A stretch of 64,000 nt of DNA from Nostoc sp. DedSLP01 (GTDB taxonomy: Bacteria; Cyanobacteriota; Cyanobacteriia; Cyanobacteriales; Nostocaceae), in the NCBI GenBank assembly GCA_034530875.2, contig JAVRCJ020000010.1:128001-192000 (forward strand). Reading direction: 5' to 3'. The number at the start of each line of letters is the position of its first letter. Position 1 is the first letter of the stretch. This document shows, piece by piece, positions 2,411 to 12,885 of the stretch. The position numbers and the translations under genes were made by a program. The notes under the pieces were generated by a model. The model had not been told where the DNA came from, made no database searches, and saw only the letters and a program-made list of their open reading frames with translations.

Positions 2411-3433
2411 ATGGTTACCAAATGCGGACTAACACTAGGTAAATATGCACCTCTGCACAAAGGACACCAATTTGTGATTGAGACGGCTTTAGCAGAGATG
2501 GATGAAGTAGTAGCGATAATTTATGATTGTCCGGAGGTGACTCCCATTCCTTTAACGGTTCGCGCTAACTGGCTGCGAAAACTTTATCCTACGGTTCGGG
2601 CGATCGAGGCGTGGGATGGGCCAACAGAGGTTGGCGATACGCCTGAAATTAAGAAAAAGCATGAAGAATATATCTTGAAAAAATTAGAATCAAAAAGGAT
2701 TACACATTTTTACTGTAGTGAATTTTATGGCGAACACGTAAGCCAAGCATTGGGAGCAGTTAACCGAATTGTAGATAGCGATCGCAAAATTTTTCCAATT
2801 TCTGGAACACAAATCAGACAAAATCCTTATGCTTTTAAGGAATATTTACATCCTGATATTTATTGCGACCTAATTACTAACGTTGTTTTTCTAGGCGCTC
2901 CCTCGACTGGTAAAACGACTATTGCATCAGAATTAGCAAAAGAGTACAAAACTGTATGGATGCCAGAATACGGGCGCGAATATTGGGAAAAATATCAAAT
3001 AGAAAGACGCCTTTCGCTCTTGCAACTTGTAGAAATTGCTCAAGGGCATTTAGAACGTGAAAAAACTTTATTATTACAAGCAAACCAATACTTGTTTACA
3101 GATACTAACGCACTAACAACCTATCAATTTTCTTTGTACTATCACAAAACTGTTGCTCCAGAGTTAATAAAACTAGCACATCAAGCTGTATCCCGCTATG
3201 ATTTAGTATTCCTTTGTGATACGGATATACCTTACGATGATACTTGCGATCGCTCTGGAGAAGCAAACCGCAATATATTCCAAAAACAAATTAAGAGCGA
3301 TTTAATTACTAGAAAAATTCCTTTCTTTACTTTGTCTGGGAATCTAAATACACGCATTAATTTTGTGAAAAAAATATTGTCTTCTTATCAAAAGTATCAT
3401 AGTTTATTAGATTTATTGGTGAAATTCAATTAA
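2411..3433 (+). CDS. nadR: NadR-like bifunctional NMN adenylyltransferase / ribosylnicotinamide kinase, lacking the HTH domain
   Basis: N-terminal HxGH motif (GKYAPLHKGH) and ISGTQIR. C-terminal AAA_28-like kinase with Walker A GAPSTGKTT, PEYGREYWE and FTDT. Lies directly upstream of pnuC. Confidence 0.85.
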   Translation: MVTKCGLTLGKYAPLHKGHQFVIETALAEMDEVVAIIYDCPEVTPIPLTVRANWLRKLYPTVRAIEAWDGPTEVGDTPEIKKKHEEYILKKLESKRITHFYCSEFYGEHVSQALGAVNRIVDSDRKIFPISGTQIRQNPYAFKEYLHPDIYCDLITNVVFLGAPSTGKTTIASELAKEYKTVWMPEYGREYWEKYQIERRLSLLQLVEIAQGHLEREKTLLLQANQYLFTDTNALTTYQFSLYYHKTVAPELIKLAHQAVSRYDLVFLCDTDIPYDDTCDRSGEANRNIFQKQIKSDLITRKIPFFTLSGNLNTRINFVKKILSSYQKYHSLLDLLVKFN

Positions 3434-3434
3434 T

Positions 3435-4085
3435 ATGTTTGATTTTTGGAGTATTAATAATATTGCCTTCCAAGTTTTAGAGTATCCCATGAGTTATGTT
3501 GAACTTTTGGGAACTATTTTCTATTTGTGGTCAGTATGGCTAATTTCTAAAAAGAAAATTTTGACTTGGCCTGTTGGGATAGTCAGTGTATTGCTGTACA
3601 TGGTACTTTTCTATCAAATCCGCTTGTATTCGGACATGATAGAGCAAGTTTATTATTTAGGTGTTAGTGTTTATGGCTGGTGGCAATGGAATAGACCAGA
3701 ATCAGCTAGTGGCGAAATTTTCCATGTTAGATATAGTTATCCACGTACAATGATTTTGGCTGTTTCAGTAACAGTAGCAATTTCCTTGGCAATGGGAGCA
3801 TTAATGAGTCAAATTCATACAATACTGCCAGCACTATTTCCAGAGAAAGCTTCTTTTCCTTACTTAGATGCCCTCACAACAATTATGAGTTTTACTGCAA
3901 TGTGGCTAATGGCACAAAAGCGGATTGAAAGTTGGTATTACTGGATAGTAGTTGATATTATTGGCATTTGGTTGTATTACATGAAAGGAATTAAATTCGT
4001 TGCTTTACTTTATGTAATTTTGCTGTTTATGGCGATTAACGGTTTAATATCTTGGCTCAAGACAGCTAAAATTAGAAATATTTGA
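3435..4085 (+). CDS. pnuC: Nicotinamide riboside transporter PnuC
   Basis: Multi-TM protein of 216 aa with YGWWQW, PYLDALTT, AMWLMAQKRIESWYYWIVVD. It starts 1 nt after the nadR stop. Confidence 0.9.
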   Translation: MFDFWSINNIAFQVLEYPMSYVELLGTIFYLWSVWLISKKKILTWPVGIVSVLLYMVLFYQIRLYSDMIEQVYYLGVSVYGWWQWNRPESASGEIFHVRYSYPRTMILAVSVTVAISLAMGALMSQIHTILPALFPEKASFPYLDALTTIMSFTAMWLMAQKRIESWYYWIVVDIIGIWLYYMKGIKFVALLYVILLFMAINGLISWLKTAKIRNI

Positions 4086-4486
4086 ATTGATTTATAAAAT
4101 TCGATTCCAATCAGCTATCATATTTGGCAAATTTCTGAGGAATTTGGGTAATACCGTTTCTTTGTGATTACCTAGTTTCAAAACAGATGAAATATTTATT
4201 TGCAACTCCCTAAACTGACGGTGGTTTGTATGTTAACTCGCTTTTTGGCTCCAACTTTCGTAACACTATTAAACAATCGTAGTAAAATTGAAAGTCAGCT
4301 TTAATTGCTTCTAAATCTTCATTAAAAATGCGATCGCTACAAAAATGCATACCAAAAGCATCACGGGTATAGAGGATTTGGGTTTTGCGATCGCAAAAGC
4401 ACCATACTCATAATTTGCCCGTTGCCCTTGCATCTAATGCAGCACATCTTTTCGCATTGGCTGTTGACAGTTAACAATTAACATTT

Positions 4487-4588
4487 ATACCAATTCCAAA
4501 AATCTTTACAACACATCAAAAATCTGTAGGGGCACAAAGCTTTGCGCCCTTACGATACTTCTGCCTCATTCTCGTTTCAAATTGATAT
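4487..4588. mobile_element. MITE-like element with an internal REP-like palindrome
   Basis: Imperfect terminal inverted repeats ataccaatt (4487-4495) and aattgatat (4580-4588). Internal hairpin gtaggggcacaaagctttgcgcccttac at 4526-4553. It sits inside degenerate 7-mer repeats (tgacagt/taacaat/aacagtc). Confidence 0.55.
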
Positions 4589-4709
4589 TAACAGTCAGCA
4601 ATCAACAGCTTAGTTACTGTTCAAATCTTGTTATCTGCGTAATCTCATTCAGAGAAAAAACTTTTTACTAAAATTTTTGATAAAGTCAACGTTTAATTAC
4701 ATAGTTGAA

Positions 4710-4737
4710 TTGACTTTCCCAACCAAGTTGGTATAAT
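4710..4737 (+). promoter_or_regulatory. Near-consensus sigma70-type promoter upstream of the ModA-PEP-CTERM gene
   Basis: TTGACT (4710-4715), a 16-nt spacer, then TATAAT (4732-4737) preceded by an extended -10 TG (TGGTATAAT). Confidence 0.6.
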
Positions 4738-4756
4738 AATCCCAATCAAAAAAGTA

Positions 4757-4780
4757 AATGCGTATAAAAAAATACGCATT
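4757..4780. promoter_or_regulatory. Perfect palindromic operator-like site containing GTA-N8-TAC
   Basis: AATGCGTAT-aaaaaa-ATACGCATT, with 9-bp arms and a 6-bp spacer, about 20 nt downstream of the -10 box. The core GTAtaaaaaaaTAC fits the NtcA consensus. Confidence 0.55.
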
Positions 4781-4816
4781 CAATACTAATGAATAATTCA
4801 TAAAGTTTAAATGCTC

Positions 4817-4925
4817 ATACCGTTTCTTTGTGAAGTTGCATACATTTACTCTCCGGCTACGCCCCTTAGCAAGGGGTGACTATAGGGGGGTCTTGATTGT
4901 GTAGATCTTCATACAGAATTGGTAT
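4817..4925. mobile_element. MITE-like element (about 109 bp)
   Basis: TIRs ataccgtttctttgtgaag (4817-4835) and cttcatacagaattggtat (4907-4925) match at 15 of 19 positions. Internal hairpin ccccttagcaagggg. A solo copy of the left end (ataccgtttctttgtga) is at 4151-4167. Confidence 0.6.
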
Positions 4926-4989
4926 CAAATCAAATACTGTTTGAGCGTTGGTTAAGCTAATAGACATTTTTGAAAGTACATATATGCTT

Positions 4990-5040
4990 CTGTTGACTAT
5001 TGAGTATTAACTGTTGATAGTCAACTATCAGCAGTCAGCA
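4990..5040. repeat. Inverted STRR-type 7-mer array
   Basis: tgttgac/tattgag/tattaac/tgttgat followed by the complementary gtcaact/atcagca/gtcagca. Confidence 0.5.
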
Positions 5041-5183
5041 AACCTGACGAGTGACTATGCAATAAATACACCAGAGTTCAGACTTAGCTTGTAGTTTACC
5101 AATTTGAAATCTGCTCTATGTGTTTTAGCTTACCAAAAACAAAATAAGTAATTTTTTCCTTACTCATGGATGATTAAAAAATC

Positions 5184-6104
5184 ATGAAAAAGCATTTGCT
5201 TGCCGCTTCACTAACTATATTTGCTGTTCATATTACCCTAATGAAACAGACTTTAGCAGCTACACTAGCTACACCCCCTGAGGTGACTTTATATGCTGCT
5301 GGCAGTTTGAGGGGTGCGCTAACAGAGGTTGCTAGTGCTTTTACCCAGGAATTTGGTATTCCAGTCAGAACAGAATTTGCCTCTTCTGGTTCGTTGAAAG
5401 ATCGTTTGTTGGCAGGGGAAAAGGCAGATATCTTCGCTAGTGCCGATTTAGGTAATGCCATTACACTGAATCAAAATAACTTAAGTGGAGAAGTCAAAAC
5501 ATTTGCCAAAAATCCTATCTATGCGATCGCCACACCTAGAGTGTCGCTGACAACAGAGAATCTGCTCGATAAGTTTCTCGATCCCAATATTAAATTAGGT
5601 ATTTCTAAACCTGTAAGCGATCCGTTGGGAGATTATGGGATCGAAGTATTTCGCAAAGCTGACCAAATTCGTCCAGGCAGCTTTGCCCAACTCAATGGTA
5701 AAGCCGTAATCTTATCAGGAACATTGCCTCCACAGAGGAATAGTCCGGGGGGTAGTATAGTCTACTATCTGCAAGATATCAACAAGGCAGACATCTATTT
5801 GGTGTACTACACCAGTGCTTTATCTGCTCAACAAATTTCACCAAGTTTACAGATAGTAGAATTGCCAGATAGCTTAAAAACCCAAGCTGACTATGGTTTG
5901 ACAGTATTCAAGGATGCGAATCCTGGAGGTTCAAAACTAGCTGATTATATCCTTTCACCAACTGGACAAAAAATACTAGCAAAGTATGGATTTAATAGTC
6001 CTAAGTCAGTTCCCGAACCTCAAGGAGTTGGTGGAGTTTTACTTGGTCTGAGTGTAGCTTTTGCCTTGCAGAGAAAATTGGCTGCCAAACAGAAAAAAGT
6101 TTAA
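5184..6104 (+). CDS. Molybdate/tungstate-binding protein (ModA-like) carrying a C-terminal PEP-CTERM sorting signal
   Basis: Signal peptide, then YAAGSL, FASSGSL, ADIFASAD, DPLGDYG and YILSPTGQKILAKYGF. The protein ends in VPEPQGVGGVLLGLSVAFALQRKLAAKQKKV (VPEP, TM helix, basic tail). Confidence 0.85.
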   Translation: MKKHLLAASLTIFAVHITLMKQTLAATLATPPEVTLYAAGSLRGALTEVASAFTQEFGIPVRTEFASSGSLKDRLLAGEKADIFASADLGNAITLNQNNLSGEVKTFAKNPIYAIATPRVSLTTENLLDKFLDPNIKLGISKPVSDPLGDYGIEVFRKADQIRPGSFAQLNGKAVILSGTLPPQRNSPGGSIVYYLQDINKADIYLVYYTSALSAQQISPSLQIVELPDSLKTQADYGLTVFKDANPGGSKLADYILSPTGQKILAKYGFNSPKSVPEPQGVGGVLLGLSVAFALQRKLAAKQKKV

Positions 6105-6164
6105 GTGAGCGATGTCTATCTACAAGTAGCTTTGCTTCTATATACTCTCGCAAAGTAATCAATA

Positions 6165-6193
6165 TAGGTAAAAATTTTTATGATTTTTACCTA
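6165..6193. promoter_or_regulatory. Perfect 11-bp inverted repeat in the intergenic spacer (hairpin or protein-binding site)
   Basis: TAGGTAAAAAT (6165-6175), a 7-nt spacer, then ATTTTTACCTA (6183-6193). Confidence 0.4.
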
Positions 6194-6219
6194 AGATTCA
6201 TCAGATTTACAATTAAACC

Positions 6220-7515
6220 ATGCAAATTTTGATTTATTCCTATAATTATTATCCAGAGCCGATAGGAATAGCGCCTTTAATGACTGAACTAGCAGAAGGG
6301 TTGGTAAAGCAAGGTCATGAGGTACGGGTGGTCACTGGAATGCCTAATTATCCACAACGTCAAATTTACGAAGCTTATAAAGGAAAGTGGTATCTTACAG
6401 AAAAAATTAATGGTGTCACAGTTCAACGCAGTTATTTGCGAATTAAATCAAAACCTAATTTAATTGATAGGTTATTGTTAGAGTTAAGTTTCATTTTTAC
6501 TAGTTTACCCCAAGCTATTAAAGGCAAACGACCAGATGTCATTCTCCTAACAATACCACCATTATTAGTTACCTTGCCAGCAGCTTTACTAGGAAAAATA
6601 TATAAATGTCCTGTAGTTTTGAATGTACAAGATATTTTACCAGAAGCAGCTGTACGTGTTGGGTTAATAACAAATAAATGTATGATTTATTTTTGCCAAA
6701 TTTTAGAAAAATTTGGCTATCATCATGCCCAAAGTATTACTGCGATCGCTGATAGCTTTTTAGAGAATTTAGTCAACAAGCAAGTACCTCCAAACAAAAT
6801 TGTTTGTATTCCTAACTGGGTAAATATTAATTTTATTCACCCTTTACCAAAAGCGAATAACCCTTGGAAAATTTCCCATCAGTTAGATGGAAAATTTGTG
6901 GTTATGTACTCCGGCAATATTGCCCTGACGCAAGGTTTAGAAACAGTAGTAGCTGCGGCAGCACGTTTGCATCATATTACCGATATCACCTTTGTAATTG
7001 CTGGAGAAGCCCTCGCTCTTTGCAGATTACAAGAGTATTGTTTGTCTTGTAGAGCAAATAATGTTTTACTCTTACCATTACAACCGCGAGAACAACTACC
7101 ACAAATGCTAGCCGCAGCTGATGTGGGGTTGATTGTCCAAAAGCGAAATGTGATTTCCTTTAATATGCCTTCTAAAATTCCCCTACTGCTAGCGAGTGGC
7201 CGTCCAATAATTGGTTCTGTACCTGCAAACGGCACAGCTGCTAAAGCAATTCGAGAAAGCGGTGGAGGTATAATTGTCGAGCCAGAGTCAGCAGATGCTC
7301 TAGCTGATGCAGTGTTGAAGTTATATTACGATCGGCAGCTAACAGAGCAGTTAGGCAACAAAGGCAGACAGTTTGCTGTTGAACATTATGCTTTTGAAGA
7401 GGCAATTGCAAGGTATGAAACTGTATTTATGGATGCGATCGCCAAACGCACATCTATAGATAGTGCTTTAAAAATAAATTCCCCAGAATCAGTTGCTGAT
7501 AATCTTTTGATTTAA
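6220..7515 (+). CDS. Glycosyltransferase family 4, WcaI-like
   Basis: MQILIYSYNYYPEPIGIA, VTGMPNYPQ, NVQDILPEAA, MYSGNIALTQGLE and FNMPSKIPLLLASGRPI. Confidence 0.9.
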   Translation: MQILIYSYNYYPEPIGIAPLMTELAEGLVKQGHEVRVVTGMPNYPQRQIYEAYKGKWYLTEKINGVTVQRSYLRIKSKPNLIDRLLLELSFIFTSLPQAIKGKRPDVILLTIPPLLVTLPAALLGKIYKCPVVLNVQDILPEAAVRVGLITNKCMIYFCQILEKFGYHHAQSITAIADSFLENLVNKQVPPNKIVCIPNWVNINFIHPLPKANNPWKISHQLDGKFVVMYSGNIALTQGLETVVAAAARLHHITDITFVIAGEALALCRLQEYCLSCRANNVLLLPLQPREQLPQMLAAADVGLIVQKRNVISFNMPSKIPLLLASGRPIIGSVPANGTAAKAIRESGGGIIVEPESADALADAVLKLYYDRQLTEQLGNKGRQFAVEHYAFEEAIARYETVFMDAIAKRTSIDSALKINSPESVADNLLI

Positions 7516-7657
7516 AATTTTCTCCTGCTTACAACAAGGGTGTAGTCGGAATTCCAAATTACTAGCTAAATCCGGGAGCAATTTTTATCTCCATAAAGTT
7601 TATTTATGCAAACGACTTCACCCAACTAAGAACTCATACTTGATTTGTCATCAAAGT

Positions 7658-7699
7658 TTTACCAATTTATTTGGTAAATACCTACTTTACTGGTATAAT
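7658..7699 (+). promoter_or_regulatory. Promoter of the second modA, with a palindrome overlapping the -35 box
   Basis: TTGGTA (7671-7676), a 17-nt spacer, then TATAAT (7694-7699), again as extended TGGTATAAT. Palindrome TTTACCAA-N5-TTGGTAAA at 7658-7678. Confidence 0.5.
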
Positions 7700-7856
7700 C
7701 TCATCATTCTATCCTTTTTACTCTCTGTTTAGGTAAACCTACTGGAAAATATCAGTTTGTATTGTCGGAAATGCTTTGGGCGATTCCGACTCACTTATCT
7801 ATTTCCAGGTATCGAAGTATGGGAGTAATAGGGTTTTATTTCAAAATATGACTTTC

Positions 7857-8702
7857 ATGAACAGAAGAAAATTTGTTACTTGGATGGCTACGGCAGCTGC
7901 CAGCATGATGCTGGTAATAGGTTTGCAATTTGTCAATTTATCACCAGCAAAGTCTGCAACCACAGTTAATGTATATGCAGCTGTCAGCTTAACAAACGCG
8001 CTGAATGCTATTAAGACTCAGTACCAAAATGCTAATCCAGGTGTGACCATTAATTACACATTTGGAGCTTCTGGTACTTTGCTCAGTCAAATACAAGGAG
8101 GCGCAACGGCAGATATTTTTATCTCTGCTGCAACCGAACAAATAGATGTTTTGCAGAATGCAAGTAAATTGGTTGCAAATAGTCGTAAAAACATTGCCAA
8201 AAATCGTCTAGTTTTGATTGTTCCAACGACATCTCCCAGCCCTGGTAGTACTGCTCTTGCTAGCTTTAATGGCCTGACCAACGCCAACATTCGTGGCATT
8301 GCGATCGGTGACTACAAAGGTACTCCGCCACTTGTACCAGCAGGAAATTATGCCAAAGAAGTTCTCACTAGTCGGGGTATTTTTAATACTGTCAGTCCTA
8401 AACTATACCTGGCTAGCAATGTGCGTAACGTTTTAACTGCCGTTGAAAATAAAACTCTTGTTGTTGGAGGCGTCAATAAAACTATTGACGCAGGTATCGT
8501 TTATAAAACTGATGCTCTCACTTCTAACAAAGTAAGGGTCGTAAATACTTCTTTAACAACAGAGAGCGATCCGATTATTTACCCACTAGGTATACTCACT
8601 AGAACCACAGTTTTATCAACAGCACAGAGTTTTTCTAACTACTTAAGCAGTACTACCGCCCAGAGTATCCTCAGAAATAACTATGGATTCCTTGCACCTT
8701 AA
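7857..8702 (+). CDS. modA: Molybdate ABC transporter substrate-binding protein ModA
   Basis: MNRRKF signal peptide, then YAAVSL, FGASGTL, ADIFISAA, VPAGNYA, NVRNVL, DAGIVYKTDA and IIYP. The start is probably ATG 7857 (or 7848), not the TTG at 7776. Confidence 0.88.
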   Translation: MNRRKFVTWMATAAASMMLVIGLQFVNLSPAKSATTVNVYAAVSLTNALNAIKTQYQNANPGVTINYTFGASGTLLSQIQGGATADIFISAATEQIDVLQNASKLVANSRKNIAKNRLVLIVPTTSPSPGSTALASFNGLTNANIRGIAIGDYKGTPPLVPAGNYAKEVLTSRGIFNTVSPKLYLASNVRNVLTAVENKTLVVGGVNKTIDAGIVYKTDALTSNKVRVVNTSLTTESDPIIYPLGILTRTTVLSTAQSFSNYLSSTTAQSILRNNYGFLAP

Positions 8703-8765
8703 TGACTACAAAGTAAACCAATTAAGTTGTTGTCTTGAATTTTGAAGTATTTGGAGTTATGTCTT

Positions 8766-9392
8766 GTGAAGTTCACTAAAAAACTCTCAGTTATTTTTTG
8801 TAGTCTAACTACCGCCTTGTTTTATACTGCTACGCTCACCAATACTTATAACTCAACTGCACAAGCAGAAGGACAAGAGTTAATTATCAATGGAAGCTTT
8901 GAAAATGACGATCTTGTAAATCCCAATGAACCCGATACTCCAAATCCTAATATTACGGGATGGACTAAATCTGGCGATTTGTTAGCTGCATCAGGTGTTA
9001 GAATCAGCAACTTTGCTAATACTGGTAAGCAAGGTTTATCGCTTGGTGCATTCTCAGACATTAGCTACGTATCACAAACTATACCTACAGTTCGCGGTCA
9101 ACACTATCAACTTACATACTATTTAGCATCCATAGAAGAGGCACCCGAACTGAAGAATAAATTTCAGGTTTTTGTAGGTGGAAAGAAAGTTGACGTGAAA
9201 AATAATACTTCTTTCCAATCCTATACCCAATACAAGCTGAATTTTAAAGCAAAAGGAACTTCCACTGAAATCAAGTTTGGTTCCAAAGCCAAGTATGCAT
9301 TTTTATATTTGGATGATGTGAGTGTAAAAGCTACGCTTGAACGTCCAGGAGAAAAGTATGGAGATGAAGTCATAGATGATAAAGATGAATAA
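8766..9392 (+). CDS. Secreted galactose-binding-like / carbohydrate-binding (DUF642/CBM-like) domain protein without a PEP-CTERM tail
   Basis: Signal peptide ending AQA, then LIINGSFE...GWT...SQTIPTVRGQHYQLTY...YLDDVSV. GGAG RBS lies upstream of GTG 8766. Acidic C-terminal tail. Close paralog of 9654-10358. Confidence 0.7.
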   Translation: MKFTKKLSVIFCSLTTALFYTATLTNTYNSTAQAEGQELIINGSFENDDLVNPNEPDTPNPNITGWTKSGDLLAASGVRISNFANTGKQGLSLGAFSDISYVSQTIPTVRGQHYQLTYYLASIEEAPELKNKFQVFVGGKKVDVKNNTSFQSYTQYKLNFKAKGTSTEIKFGSKAKYAFLYLDDVSVKATLERPGEKYGDEVIDDKDE

Positions 9393-9653
9393 ACCATAAG
9401 TCTAAATCTCAGCAATGCCTGGCTCCACAGTGTCGAGAAAGAATGCCACTAAAATTTATCTGATTGAAATTCTTTATCATTGGTTGATTAAGAAAAATTG
9501 CTTTGGATGTCTGAATCATTCTCCACATCTATAGCTAAGTCATATATACCAGAATAAAGTGCCGAGTTTTATTGACACTGCTGAGAGCCAACATCAATGT
9601 AACTATCTACTTTTTTAACTGTTGCAATTTGGAATTATTCGGAGTCAAGTTTG

Positions 9654-10358
9654 ATGAAGTTAGATAAAAACCTCTCAATTATTGTTTTTAGTGCGATCGC
9701 TACGTTAGCTAGCACTGCTGTAATTACTGGTACTTATATTCCAGTAGCACAAGCACAATACAATCCCAACTATATTTTAGATCCGAGAGATATTGTTCTT
9801 AATGGAGGGTTTGAACTCGACCCACTGGTAGATCCGAATAATCCAAATACCACAAATCCTAATATCACAGGATGGACTAAATCTGGCGATCCGATAAATA
9901 CATCGGGGATTAGAATTAGCAATTTTCCTCAAAGTGGTAATCAGGGTCTATCGCTTGGTGGATTTGTAGACCTCAGCTACATATCGCAGACGCTTTCTAC
10001 ACAGCCCGGTCAGCAATACGAGCTTAGTTACTATCTAGCATCTATAGCTGAAGCTCCCGATCTTGATAATCAGTTTCAGGCTTTTTTAGGTGGAAATAAG
10101 ATTTTCGACCAAAATAATATTTCTTTTCAACCATACACGCCATATAAGTTCAATTTCACAGCAGATTCATCATCTACAGAGTTAAAGTTTGGCTCTGTAG
10201 ATAAATATGCTTTCTTATATTTAGATAATGTAAGTGTCAAACCTGTACCTGAGCCATCAATGATTGGAGGGATAGCAATTGCAGGAATAGTAGGAATTTG
10301 GTTGAAGAAAAAGCGATCGCTATCACCTGTTAACGAAGGCAGGAGGCCGTTTTTGTAA
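9654..10358 (+). CDS. CBM-like domain protein with a PEP-CTERM sorting signal
   Basis: Signal peptide ending AQA, then VLNGGFE...NPNITGWTKSGD...YLDNVSV. It ends VPEPSMIGGIAIAGIVGIWLKKKR. Confidence 0.8.
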   Translation: MKLDKNLSIIVFSAIATLASTAVITGTYIPVAQAQYNPNYILDPRDIVLNGGFELDPLVDPNNPNTTNPNITGWTKSGDPINTSGIRISNFPQSGNQGLSLGGFVDLSYISQTLSTQPGQQYELSYYLASIAEAPDLDNQFQAFLGGNKIFDQNNISFQPYTPYKFNFTADSSSTELKFGSVDKYAFLYLDNVSVKPVPEPSMIGGIAIAGIVGIWLKKKRSLSPVNEGRRPFL

Positions 10359-10430
10359 GAGGATTTATACTCCATTCCAAAAACTTTTCGCCTTAAAAAC
10401 GGAGGTTTTAGACCCGATTGTTTCGATAAA
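10330..10430. repeat. Dispersed repeat of about 100 bp, copy A (overlaps the 3' end of the PEP-CTERM gene)
   Basis: ttaacgaaggcag...ggaggccgtttttgtaa..gaggatttatac..c.ttccaaaaactt...ggttttaga.ccgattgtttcgataaa, shared with 15847-15959. Confidence 0.75.
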
Positions 10431-10590
10431 CTGTCTAATTAACTGCGACTGCAAAACTTGTACTCAAGAGGCGAACTAGCACATCACGAACTATATTAAT
10501 TCTGCACGCCGCCATTACCCAACTTACTCAACAAGTGCTGATTGCTAGTGCCAGCCAAATGGAACAACAAATAGATGTGAATACAGGATA

Positions 10591-10673
10591 GGGTTTAGCA
10601 GTGCTAAACCCCAAGGCGCACAGCTAGCTGTGCGCCCTTACAACGTGGTCTATTTACGTGAAAGTTGCTGTAA
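10591..10673. repeat. Tandem REP/SDR-like palindromes plus a MITE-like end
   Basis: gggtttagca-g-tgctaaaccc (10591-10611) and ggcgcacagctagctgtgcgcc (10615-10636), followed by gtggtctatttacgtgaaagttgctgtaa. Confidence 0.6.
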
Positions 10674-10853
10674 ACCTACTTTTTGCTTATGGAGTAGTAA
10701 AGTTATACCACCCACAATTAATATCGCAGGTATTGAATCTGATTCAGGAATTGGTGTAACTTGGCCTAAACCGCTTATTGTGTTGCTAAAACGGCCAAAA
10801 TCATTCTCTCGACGGCCAGTAGTAACTAAAAAGTATTTCGTACAGCAACTGAA
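10650..10853 (-). pseudogene. Start-less C-terminal remnant of a PEP-CTERM-like protein gene (not in the ORF track)
   Basis: Manual translation gives ...YFLVTTGRRENDFGRFSNTISGLGQVTPIPESDSIPAILIVGGITLLLHKQKVGLQQLSRK*, i.e. IPES, TM helix, basic residues. An in-frame TGA lies at 10854-10856 and there is no ATG. Confidence 0.6.
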
Positions 10854-11253
10854 TCAAATTCAAAGTTTAAAAAGCATCCCTAAAATTGGTGTACCTCACT
10901 TACCTCAAAAGCGCTGTAGTTTGTGTAATTAGCTTACTTAAAGTGTCTCTATATTTATAGAAAGAGGAGATATATAGCTAATTTTTTAGCAAACAACAGC
11001 AATCATAGTTAGTATTTAAGTTAGATTGATTTGTAGTAAATAACCCTCCAATAGTAGCTTTTTTAATTTAAAAGTCTTATTAAAAGTCTTATTTATCTAA
11101 GCTTATAGTTATTTCTACTGACAAAAATACTATACCAGCTATTTTGGTATAAATCAATTTATTTATGCCATAAATATGTAAAAATTTGATGAATCAAGCT
11201 GAAGCATCGGTAATCTGAGGTTTATATTTTTTGGATAAAATGTAGCTTGGAAT

Positions 11254-12885
11254 TCACTTTTTAAACAGCCAAAATCCTCCGGAAGATATTAGTAACAACG
11301 GCGTCAACCAATCACCCCAACGCACATATAAAGTCTTTGTTTGTCGGCGATAAATTGTTTCGGCATGAGTTTCGTAAGTGTTATATCCAGATATCCACAA
11401 AGTTCTGCCGTGAGGATCTACAAAAGCTGAATATCCTGTATTCGTTGCTCGTGCCGACCATCTATCGGTTTCAATTGCTCGCATGATATCGTGTGCGTGA
11501 TGCTGGAATGGCATCCACCAAGTGTAATGAGCATCGTTAGAAGAACTGAGAATAAATTCTCCACCTCCCGCAGCTTGATAGCGGAATTGTTCGGGAAAAG
11601 CAGATTCATAACATATACTAGCGATCGCTCTCCCAAAAGGAGTGTTAAATACTTGATGTGCTGCACCCGCAACTTGATGTGCATCCAAAGGCGATAACCG
11701 CTGAACTATTGCGCCTAAAATTTCTTCAAAGGGAATATATTCTCCCAAAGGTACTAATTTCGCTTTGTCGTAGCGGCTGACAATTTCGCCTCGATTGTTA
11801 AAAGTAAACAAGCTAATTGTATAACTGCGCCCTGTTTCCCCAAAAGCTCCAATCCAAGCAACTACACCTTTTTCCTTCACTGCTGCGACTAAAGCAGTTG
11901 CCATCAAGTGACGCTCGAAAACAGGTAATGCTCCCTCTGCGGTGAGAACTGCATCTACACCTTGATTTGCTAAATTTATATATCCCTTAGTGTAGTTTTC
12001 TTCGGCGCGACGAAACCCTTCGGAACTCCGCAAAAGTCGGTTAGGAATATTACCTTGAACAATCCCGATTTTCAACGCCGCTTCTGGTGCTTGAACGATG
12101 GGACGGCTGTATAATATAAAACCTATTAAATGTAAAGTAATTAATATTCCGGCGGCAGTAGCAAAGTATTTATTAATGTACCGCCCAGGCGCAGACGGAA
12201 CTTCCTTTGTATCTACTGCACTTGTGTATTTTATCCATCCTTCAGCAATCAAACCATTGACAGCAACTATTGCCGCTGTCACAGTATTAGGCCCGGAGAG
12301 TTGACCAAGGTGTACAATTACGAGATTATGCGGACTTTGCGTGTAAGCCAGAGAACTCCACCACAAAGGGCCAGCACTCCACAGACTCTCTAAACCACAC
12401 CATACGGCTGTACCAATTAGTATACGCAGCCAAGATTTGCGATCGCTCAGGCGAACCATAACAGCCGCCCAAATACTCACAAATATGCCGCCTAAGGTAC
12501 TGATAAATCCCCAACAAAAAAGCGTAATTGCCAAACTCGGTAACCACGGTACGCCCAACCAAGTCATGGGATGAATCCCTGTAATCCACGAGAGGGCGAT
12601 ACCGTGATAAGCGATGCCCCAAGCTAAGGCAATTAAAAATTGAGAATTAAAAATTAAAAATGAAAATTTTTCTCCTGAATTTTTAATTTTTAATTTTTCA
12701 TTTTTAATTATGAGAACCCAGAGGGGGGCTAGGGCAATCCAAGCGAGGAACCATGCGCCGACGGGGGCGACGGTCACCCCCATCAAAACACCGCTGGCTA
12801 AGGCAATCAACCAAGGAAGTAGGGAGGTTAATTTCTCCCCCTGCTTCCTTTGCTCCCCCTGCTTTTTACTCAGCTTCTTCTGCAT
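11254..12885 (-). CDS. lnt: Apolipoprotein N-acyltransferase
   Basis: Membrane N-terminus plus a nitrilase domain with [38 protein letters not shown] and RATNTGYS. It overlaps the gyrA stop. ATG at 12885, with GTG 12891 as an alternative. Confidence 0.95.
12631..12709. repeat. In-frame inverted 7-mer (AATTAAA-type) STRR array inside lnt
   Basis: aattaaa/aattgag/aattaaa/aattaaa/aatgaaa ... ttttaat/ttttaat/ttttcat/ttttaat, encoding [25 protein letters not shown]. Confidence 0.7.

Follow-up and report, generated by a model that had tools for sequence, protein, structure and literature searches.

We analyzed a locus of five co-oriented genes, here named A to E, in a 64,000-nucleotide stretch (the window) of the Nostoc sp. 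DedSLP01 genome, and conclude that four of them, A, C, D, and E, probably form an exported molybdate-capture module that is repressed by molybdenum (Mo) and feeds a remotely encoded ModA/ModBC transporter, gene B being a likely passenger. The window corresponds to G000:C10:128001-192000, where G000 is the genome of the window and C-numbers are its contigs; L-numbers denote loci taken from other genomes or from other contigs of G000. An earlier note on this DNA had proposed a surface system for molybdate capture comprising all five genes. Its co-oriented genes and both PEP-CTERM tails proved real, as confirmed by the open reading frames (5184-6104, 6220-7515, 7776/7857-8702, 8742/8766-9392, and 9651/9654-10358), domain matches, and tail motifs; signal peptides in the locus proteins were called by eye. 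A single contig of even depth covered 3500-10356 in three of three sequencing runs, so the five-gene layout is not an assembly join, though the runs are probably the source of the assembly and so not independent of it. Named database relatives of the window proteins come from Nostoc and close genera. The locus joins two modules, gene A and the C-D-E cassette, around an extra copy of a scytonemin-cluster glycosyltransferase:

4710 to 4737, + strand: promoter of gene A, sigma70-type (TTGACT-16-TATAAT), with operator 1 (4717-4733) between and over the hexamers
5184 to 6104, + strand: gene A, ModA-like protein with signal peptide and PEP-CTERM-type tail (PF13531, PRK03537-type, Ava4025-related)
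6220 to 7515, + strand: gene B, WcaI-family GT4 glycosyltransferase, an additional, divergent copy of the enzyme from the scytonemin cluster and a likely passenger
7660 to 7699, + strand: promoter of C-D-E, with operator 2 (7660-7676), a weaker second copy (7679-7695), and a -10 box
7857 to 8702, + strand: gene C (ATG at 7857), soluble non-lipoprotein ModA paralog rich in Ser, Thr, and Asn (TIGR01256)
8766 to 9392, + strand: gene D (alternative start TTG at 8742), exported DUF642/CBM-fold protein, tailless duplicate of E
9654 to 10358, + strand: gene E, exported protein with a PEP-CTERM tail (TIGR02595) and a predicted CBM (carbohydrate-binding module) fold

The two modules share a palindrome, TACCAA-N5-TTGGTA, which we found in the upstream regions of C- and A-family genes. 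With up to one mismatch, it occurs four times in the window (at 4717, 7660, and 11133, and once inside gene A), against 0.22 occurrences expected (0 of 100 shuffles). The sites at 4717 (one mismatch) and 7660 (perfect) overlap the two best sigma70-type promoter matches of the region, that of gene A being the best match within 4100-11300 with 11 of 12 hexamer positions plus TG. Up to one mismatch was seen in 55 of 62 C-family upstream regions and up to two mismatches in 17 of 21 A-family rows. Of the remaining four rows, two are internal fragments and one is the second copy of a tandem; in the fourth, that of the window, the site lies just beyond the 450 bp scanned. All 17 site-bearing A-family promoters carry a TTGA(C/T)-like -35 element within 12 nucleotides (nt) upstream of the palindrome.

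As an independent test of the palindrome, we built a matrix exclusively from 47 C-family sites of other genomes and applied it with a threshold of 12, the background being 0.7% of 4302 genes. In the window, A scored 15.6 and C 26.6, operator 2 being the top hit of the whole G000 genome, and B, D, and E were below 12. Scores of at least 12 were found before five of five canonical modA genes and before a TOBE-domain modE-like gene, matched in 49 of 61 genomes, in 26 of the best 30 loci scored, 25 of them at -24/-25 nt. Only four of 30 modBC loci reached the threshold, and modA lies directly upstream in 16 of the 30; half-sites with a 16-nt spacer, one extra helical turn, occurred in 11 of the 30 against a background of 0.12%, and those of G000 modBC are 26 nt apart, two extra turns. 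The extra-turn spacing at modBC promoters (L223-L245) suggests flexible dimer spacing. Besides A and C, the top hits in G000 include modA, a VnfR-like gene, a vnfR-remnant/vnfH-like locus, and a gene resembling molybdopterin oxidoreductases, which has the palindrome in 10 of 11 homologous loci. E-type genes outside the company of C have a palindrome of their own in three of four cases. Judged by the shared site, A and C are putative members of a Mo regulon and B is not; the co-regulation suggested in the earlier note is thus backed by the operator for A, C, D, and E and not for the glycosyltransferase. An Rfam scan of 4000-11400 at E 0.1 matched no RNA element such as a molybdenum cofactor riboswitch.

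The repressor was assigned from gene context alone, and to our knowledge PRK03537-type proteins are thinly characterized, a literature search on them having returned nothing; a reading in which the palindrome responds to some different signal, and the ModA folds to a ligand that is not molybdate, is conceivable. With sites before the TOBE-domain regulator, modA, modBC, and vnfR-like genes, we regard this as highly improbable.

Several other G000 loci carry the same operator. The second-best operator of the genome precedes an HsdR_N-domain protein (C7:96398-97327), homologues of which recur near Mo loci in relatives. In the surrounding region (L135; C7:96398-102303), a truncated vnfR precedes orphan genes resembling vnfH, vnfE, and vnfN, and operators lie at C7:102567 and 97474; orphan vnfH-vnfR pairs have been described (PMC8461463), and vnfD was not found in G000. 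The molybdopterin-oxidoreductase-like gene named above (L137; C25:108649-109317) has tandem operators and encodes an exported 222-amino-acid protein with no Pfam match. Finally, a truncated A-family gene (L138; C50:11243-11674) lies ahead of an operator (C50:11736), beyond which comes a cluster of uncharacterized enzyme genes.

The C-D-E cassette is the more widely conserved of the two modules. Homologues of E were present in 95 of 127 genus genomes; among 301 family genomes, the D/E profile matched 68, spread over 13 of 68 genera. We surveyed 40 loci from the 94 other E-matching genus genomes and 20 loci from other genera. The order C>D>E was found in 40 of 40 Nostoc loci, the whole cassette being duplicated in four, and the surroundings of the cassette differ among them, often with an sfsA or ilvD-like gene in front. 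Outside Nostoc, 17 of the 20 loci, these 17 covering 11 genera, have C immediately before an E-type gene; a unit of ModA and CBM-fold PEP-CTERM protein is thus conserved in 12 genera. Untagged D was restricted to the four loci nearest the genus, and C with tagged E is therefore likely the ancestral unit. In nine distant loci (L119-L131), a subtilase/CARDB protease gene converges on E.

Gene C encodes a ModA, with 152 bits to TIGR01256 (cut-off 62.5) and 41% identity to canonical modA. We placed the ligand columns of A and C by the ModA oxyanion ligands (S12, S39, A125, V152, and Y170 in Escherichia coli numbering); the corresponding positions of C (S44, S72, A162, V189, and Y216) are invariant in 26 of 26 aligned rows, one of which is canonical ModA. 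The protein has no lipobox, and its composition is unusual, with 21% Ser plus Thr and 10% Asn compared with 10% and 6% in canonical ModA. We do not claim export by the twin-arginine pathway, since distant members have lost the twin arginine. One relative of C, at L050:9225-10148 (genome G008), is a C-type ModA with an independently gained PEP-CTERM tail.

These properties also allow a plainer interpretation: C would be a second binding protein of the ordinary periplasmic kind, docking directly on ModBC, A its membrane-tethered equivalent, and D and E co-regulated surface proteins with some other task, so that no extracellular capture layer would exist. C indeed groups with canonical ModA in the tree and has retained each of the five ligand positions, the canonical ModA of G000 is likewise not a lipoprotein, and passages of PMC12188702 describe PEP-CTERM proteins, such as ScyE, that act in the periplasm. 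What makes us consider this interpretation rather unlikely, if a serious contender, is the linkage of an E-type PEP-CTERM gene to C in 57 of 60 loci, compared with none of the 60 in which C directly adjoins modBC (L123 has modBC a few genes away), along with the Ser/Thr/Asn-rich composition of C and the existence of the tailed C-type ModA in L050.

D and E are a genuine duplicate pair, 56% identical, of which E has the tail and D does not. Both resemble DUF642 and choice-of-anchor-C proteins: D exceeds the Pfam DUF642 cut-off, E reaches it, and both score far under that of TIGR04362; E also exceeds the TIGR02595 PEP-CTERM cut-off. An AlphaFold model of the mature E domain, which replaced a poor model from a shallow alignment (predicted local distance difference test, pLDDT, 56), predicts a beta-sandwich CBM fold at pLDDT 92.8. 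Its Foldseek matches were CBM4-2, CBM16, CBM22, CBM61, and the Stig cyclases, at 10-23% identity and template modeling scores of about 0.6-0.69; with the CBM4/16/22/61 families, DUF642/choice-of-anchor C, and Stig cyclases such as HpiC1, the model shares a galactose-binding-like beta-sandwich. A sequence search for relatives with solved structures gave only weak fibronectin matches. The E-type domain is common: a search at E 0.001 matched 7405 representatives, many of them long multidomain proteins, and the Atlas clusters nearest to E consist mostly of PEP-CTERM proteins. The cognate exosortase of G000 is cyanoexosortase B (CrtB; TIGR04156, 492.8 bits).

According to the earlier note, each exported protein type occurs twice, with and without a sorting tail. 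This holds for D and E but not for A and C, which are only 26% identical and fall into separate clades at 100/100 support in a 37-row tree, C with canonical ModA proteins and A with genes upstream of vnfDG; judging from the tree, they are unrelated subfamilies rather than a tagged and untagged pair. A matches PF13531 and marginally passes TIGR01256 (66.9 bits against 62.5); the PRK03537 ModA-like models fit it best, A scoring below their cut-offs. Its tail consists of VPEP, a hydrophobic stretch, and basic residues, a motif seen directly, as a TIGR02595-type hidden Markov model gave no match. A VPE-x tail is present in 64 of 68 full-length homologues, as 47 strict PEP-type and 17 PEH/PEG variants, and S41, S68, and Y209 are invariant in all 68, with variation at the two backbone ligand positions. 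The A family is separate from the C-D-E cassette and patchier in distribution. Its close orthologues neighbor modD, hesA, modA, modBC, and alternative-nitrogenase genes, and in nine of 20 vnfD loci an A-family gene with 42-50% identity and without signal or tail heads the vnfDG cluster. According to passages of PMC4284476, Ava4025 of Anabaena variabilis, encoded in that position by the first gene of the vnfDGKEN operon, is a Mo-repressed ModA-like protein.

ModA proteins bind tungsten besides Mo. The module could thus serve to buffer or exclude competing oxyanions (tungstate, vanadate) once Mo starvation opens the high-affinity transporter, with no harvest of Mo, and it would fit that A-family genes head vnfDG and that, in passages of PMC4284476, tungstate replaces molybdate in repressing a Mo-transport gene. 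We find this distinctly unlikely: G000 itself lacks vnfD, vnfD is present in only eight of 38 other genus genomes compared with 34 of 38 for the D/E family, and WtpA models match the proteins weakly.

Compared with ModABC, and with modA and modBC of A. variabilis, A and C share the fold family, the aligned ligand positions, and the predicted operator; they differ in being extra paralogs without an adjacent permease, A having a PEP-CTERM tail and C being tied to CBM-fold PEP-CTERM genes. The observation of the earlier note that modB and modC are missing from the window was correct, canonical modA being on C12 and a fused modBC on C17 of G000. We rejected it as a sign of novelty: modA and modBC of A. 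variabilis are also unlinked, 2.7 Mb apart according to passages of PMC4284476, and the lack of modB and modC beside A and C thus says little. The genes in the Ava4025 position share 42-50% identity and a clade with A, Ava4025 itself having been placed by position rather than from its sequence; A differs from them by its signal and tail, whereas the Ava4025-type genes lack both and head V-nitrogenase genes, vnfD being absent from G000. Another likeness is with ZepA (All3515), which passages of PMC10957091 describe as a PEP-CTERM exoprotein under Zur experimentally shown to act in zinc uptake. The two cases share a metal-repressed exported PEP-CTERM protein with a proposed role in metal scavenging in structured habitats (PMC10957091, in passages), but differ in metal, fold, and regulator, the module here combining an ABC binding-protein fold with CBM-fold partners.

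The place of gene B in the system did not hold up. B is a WcaI-family GT4 protein (NF007640 above cut-off) with four paralogs at 64-74% in G000, and its closest match in 126 other genus genomes is 76%. The best 29 B loci were all of the scyF-like/glycosyltransferase/tyrA-like, that is scytonemin-cluster, type and 83-86% identical to the copy on C18 of G000 itself, so B is an extra copy at this site. Its nearest relatives, at about 75%, are the scytonemin-cluster glycosyltransferases between scyF and tyrA, B being a fourth copy outside that cluster, which we recognized in G000 by its scyABC/DEF-like, tyrA, and trp genes; the gene order was taken in part from passages of PMC4870267 and PMC12188702. 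Upstream of B, the matrix score was 1.7, corresponding to no site.

Nevertheless, all five genes might work as a single system, with B adding sugars either to the PEP-CTERM proteins or to a polymer of the sheath that holds them. B starts 115 bp after A with no terminator found, making read-through from A to B possible, and its closest paralog also follows a PEP-CTERM gene. We consider this very unlikely: B was beside A or C in none of the 40 and 20 cassette loci and none of 13 close A loci, and neither a close orthologue nor an operator was found. A DNA query spanning A-B-C, with two candidates scored per genome, gave no joint match in the 126 other genus genomes among the matches listed (150 of 246). 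Within the 1.5-kb flanks of the 13 close A loci, three of which end at contig ends, B was not found, and neither A nor B was present in the stretches around the 40 Nostoc C-D-E loci. The synteny of all five genes expected by the earlier note was found in no other genome searched, and B is likely an inserted passenger. The link to Mo and the proposed surface or sheath capture gain support, beyond what the earlier note could see, from the shared operator, the conserved oxyanion ligands, and the unit of ModA and CBM-fold PEP-CTERM protein; the single conserved five-gene system does not hold.

Several observations weigh against a Mo-repressed capture module. The window A has Ser at the Val ligand position, where most family members keep Val, and an ava4025 mutant had no apparent phenotype in passages of PMC4284476, though Ava4025-type proteins lack signal and tail. 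Homologues of E were not found in 32 of 127 genus and 233 of 301 family genomes, which means that the module is dispensable. On the predicted model, the CBM fold of E does not imply sugar binding, as Stig cyclases fit equally well. For the operator, the C-family sites are orthologous and thus not independent, the palindrome was absent before six of nine ava4025-type genes, and scores of at least 12 preceded only five of 15 VnfR-like and three of nine modD genes; hits of at least 16 bits in the genome numbered 26 compared with 3-21 for column-shuffled matrices, a modest enrichment. The absence before the ava4025-type genes, together with the fixed site before the modE-like gene, also disfavors VnfR as the sole binder of the palindrome. 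In A. variabilis, VnfR controls the ava4025-type genes; passages of PMC4284476 describe a modE homologue upstream of modA as the probable Mo regulator there.

Weighing both sides, we still favor Mo-repressed capture by A, C, D, and E, and infer the following course of regulation, binding, localization, and hand-over. Under Mo-replete conditions, the TOBE-domain ModE-like repressor (G000 C19:3594-4037) would sit on the palindrome over both promoters. Under Mo shortage, it would release the A and C-D-E promoters together with those of modA, modBC, and vnfR-type genes. The exported A and C would bind molybdate or tungstate by the conserved ModA ligand set, and cyanoexosortase B would process A and E, both being held at, or shed into, the outer layers. 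D and E may bind sheath polysaccharide or position C, and molybdate would pass by equilibrium from the capture proteins to the canonical ModA/ModBC encoded elsewhere.

Past gene E, the order is a dispersed repeat of about 95 bp, an inverted remnant of a PEP-CTERM gene, and a third operator in a stretch resembling A-family promoters:

10668 to 10838, - strand: 3' remnant (57 codons) of the PEP-CTERM gene of about 200 amino acids that follows A in relatives
11129 to 11157, - strand: operator 3 (11133-11149) on top of a promoter-like site that points toward the remnant, a relic of a second A-type unit

The remnant has 82% amino-acid identity to genes in L031 and L041, tail included, and window positions 11003-11165 show 71% similarity to the A-family promoter region of L131. 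We interpret the locus as a small island of gathered and rearranged Mo-regulon units, B having been inserted among them. The dispersed repeat (10330-10430) has dozens of copies in the genome and runs over the end of gene E. Immediately before the island lie NadR-like and PnuC genes of nicotinamide adenine dinucleotide salvage (2411-4085). Further along the window, translations indicate a large nonribosomal peptide synthetase/polyketide synthase cluster (16381-63907, - strand) with two cytochromes P450, a pyridoxal phosphate-dependent decarboxylase, an aminotransferase, JmjC/TauD-like oxygenases, and a MATE transporter, and a second, polyketide synthase/fatty-acyl-AMP-ligase-like cluster lies directly left of the window.

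Full-text literature searches gave no description of the module or the operator, as far as the passages retrieved go; the primary papers on A. variabilis modA/modBC and VnfR may have the site. In the hormogonium exoproteome of Nostoc punctiforme (PMC12188702, supplement 1), from growth that was not Mo-limited, the terms 'molybdenum ABC' and 'molybdate' and three family motifs were unmatched. The 14 viewed of 22 'molybd' mentions in that supplement named no binding protein, a weak negative without the strain's locus tags. PMC5913679 has molybdenum only in its references, and passages of PMC9620832 report that a single molybdenum ABC component, which we did not match to genes of the locus, changes close to rice roots.

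Mo limits cyanobacterial nitrogen fixation at low nanomolar levels according to passages of PMC3440940, and for its acquisition literature passages name ModABC, storage proteins, and small-molecule molybdophores. To these, an exported module conserved in most of the Nostoc genomes searched would contribute a new layer. More tentatively, and at somewhat less than even confidence, we envisage that soil and symbiotic Nostocaceae build a Mo-starvation-induced protein coat in the sheath, in which ModA folds and glycan-binding tethers exported via cyanoexosortase may harvest and store molybdate outside the outer membrane, under the control of a previously undescribed TACCAA-N5-TTGGTA operator of a TOBE-domain ModE-like repressor. 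If true, this would amount to a protein 'molybdophore' that serves nitrogen fixers in habitats poor in Mo. The operator is useful alone: it defines a testable Mo regulon for the Nostocaceae, ties PEP-CTERM proteins of unknown role to a definite candidate function, and may provide field markers of Mo limitation in the cyanobionts of lichens, mosses, and roots.

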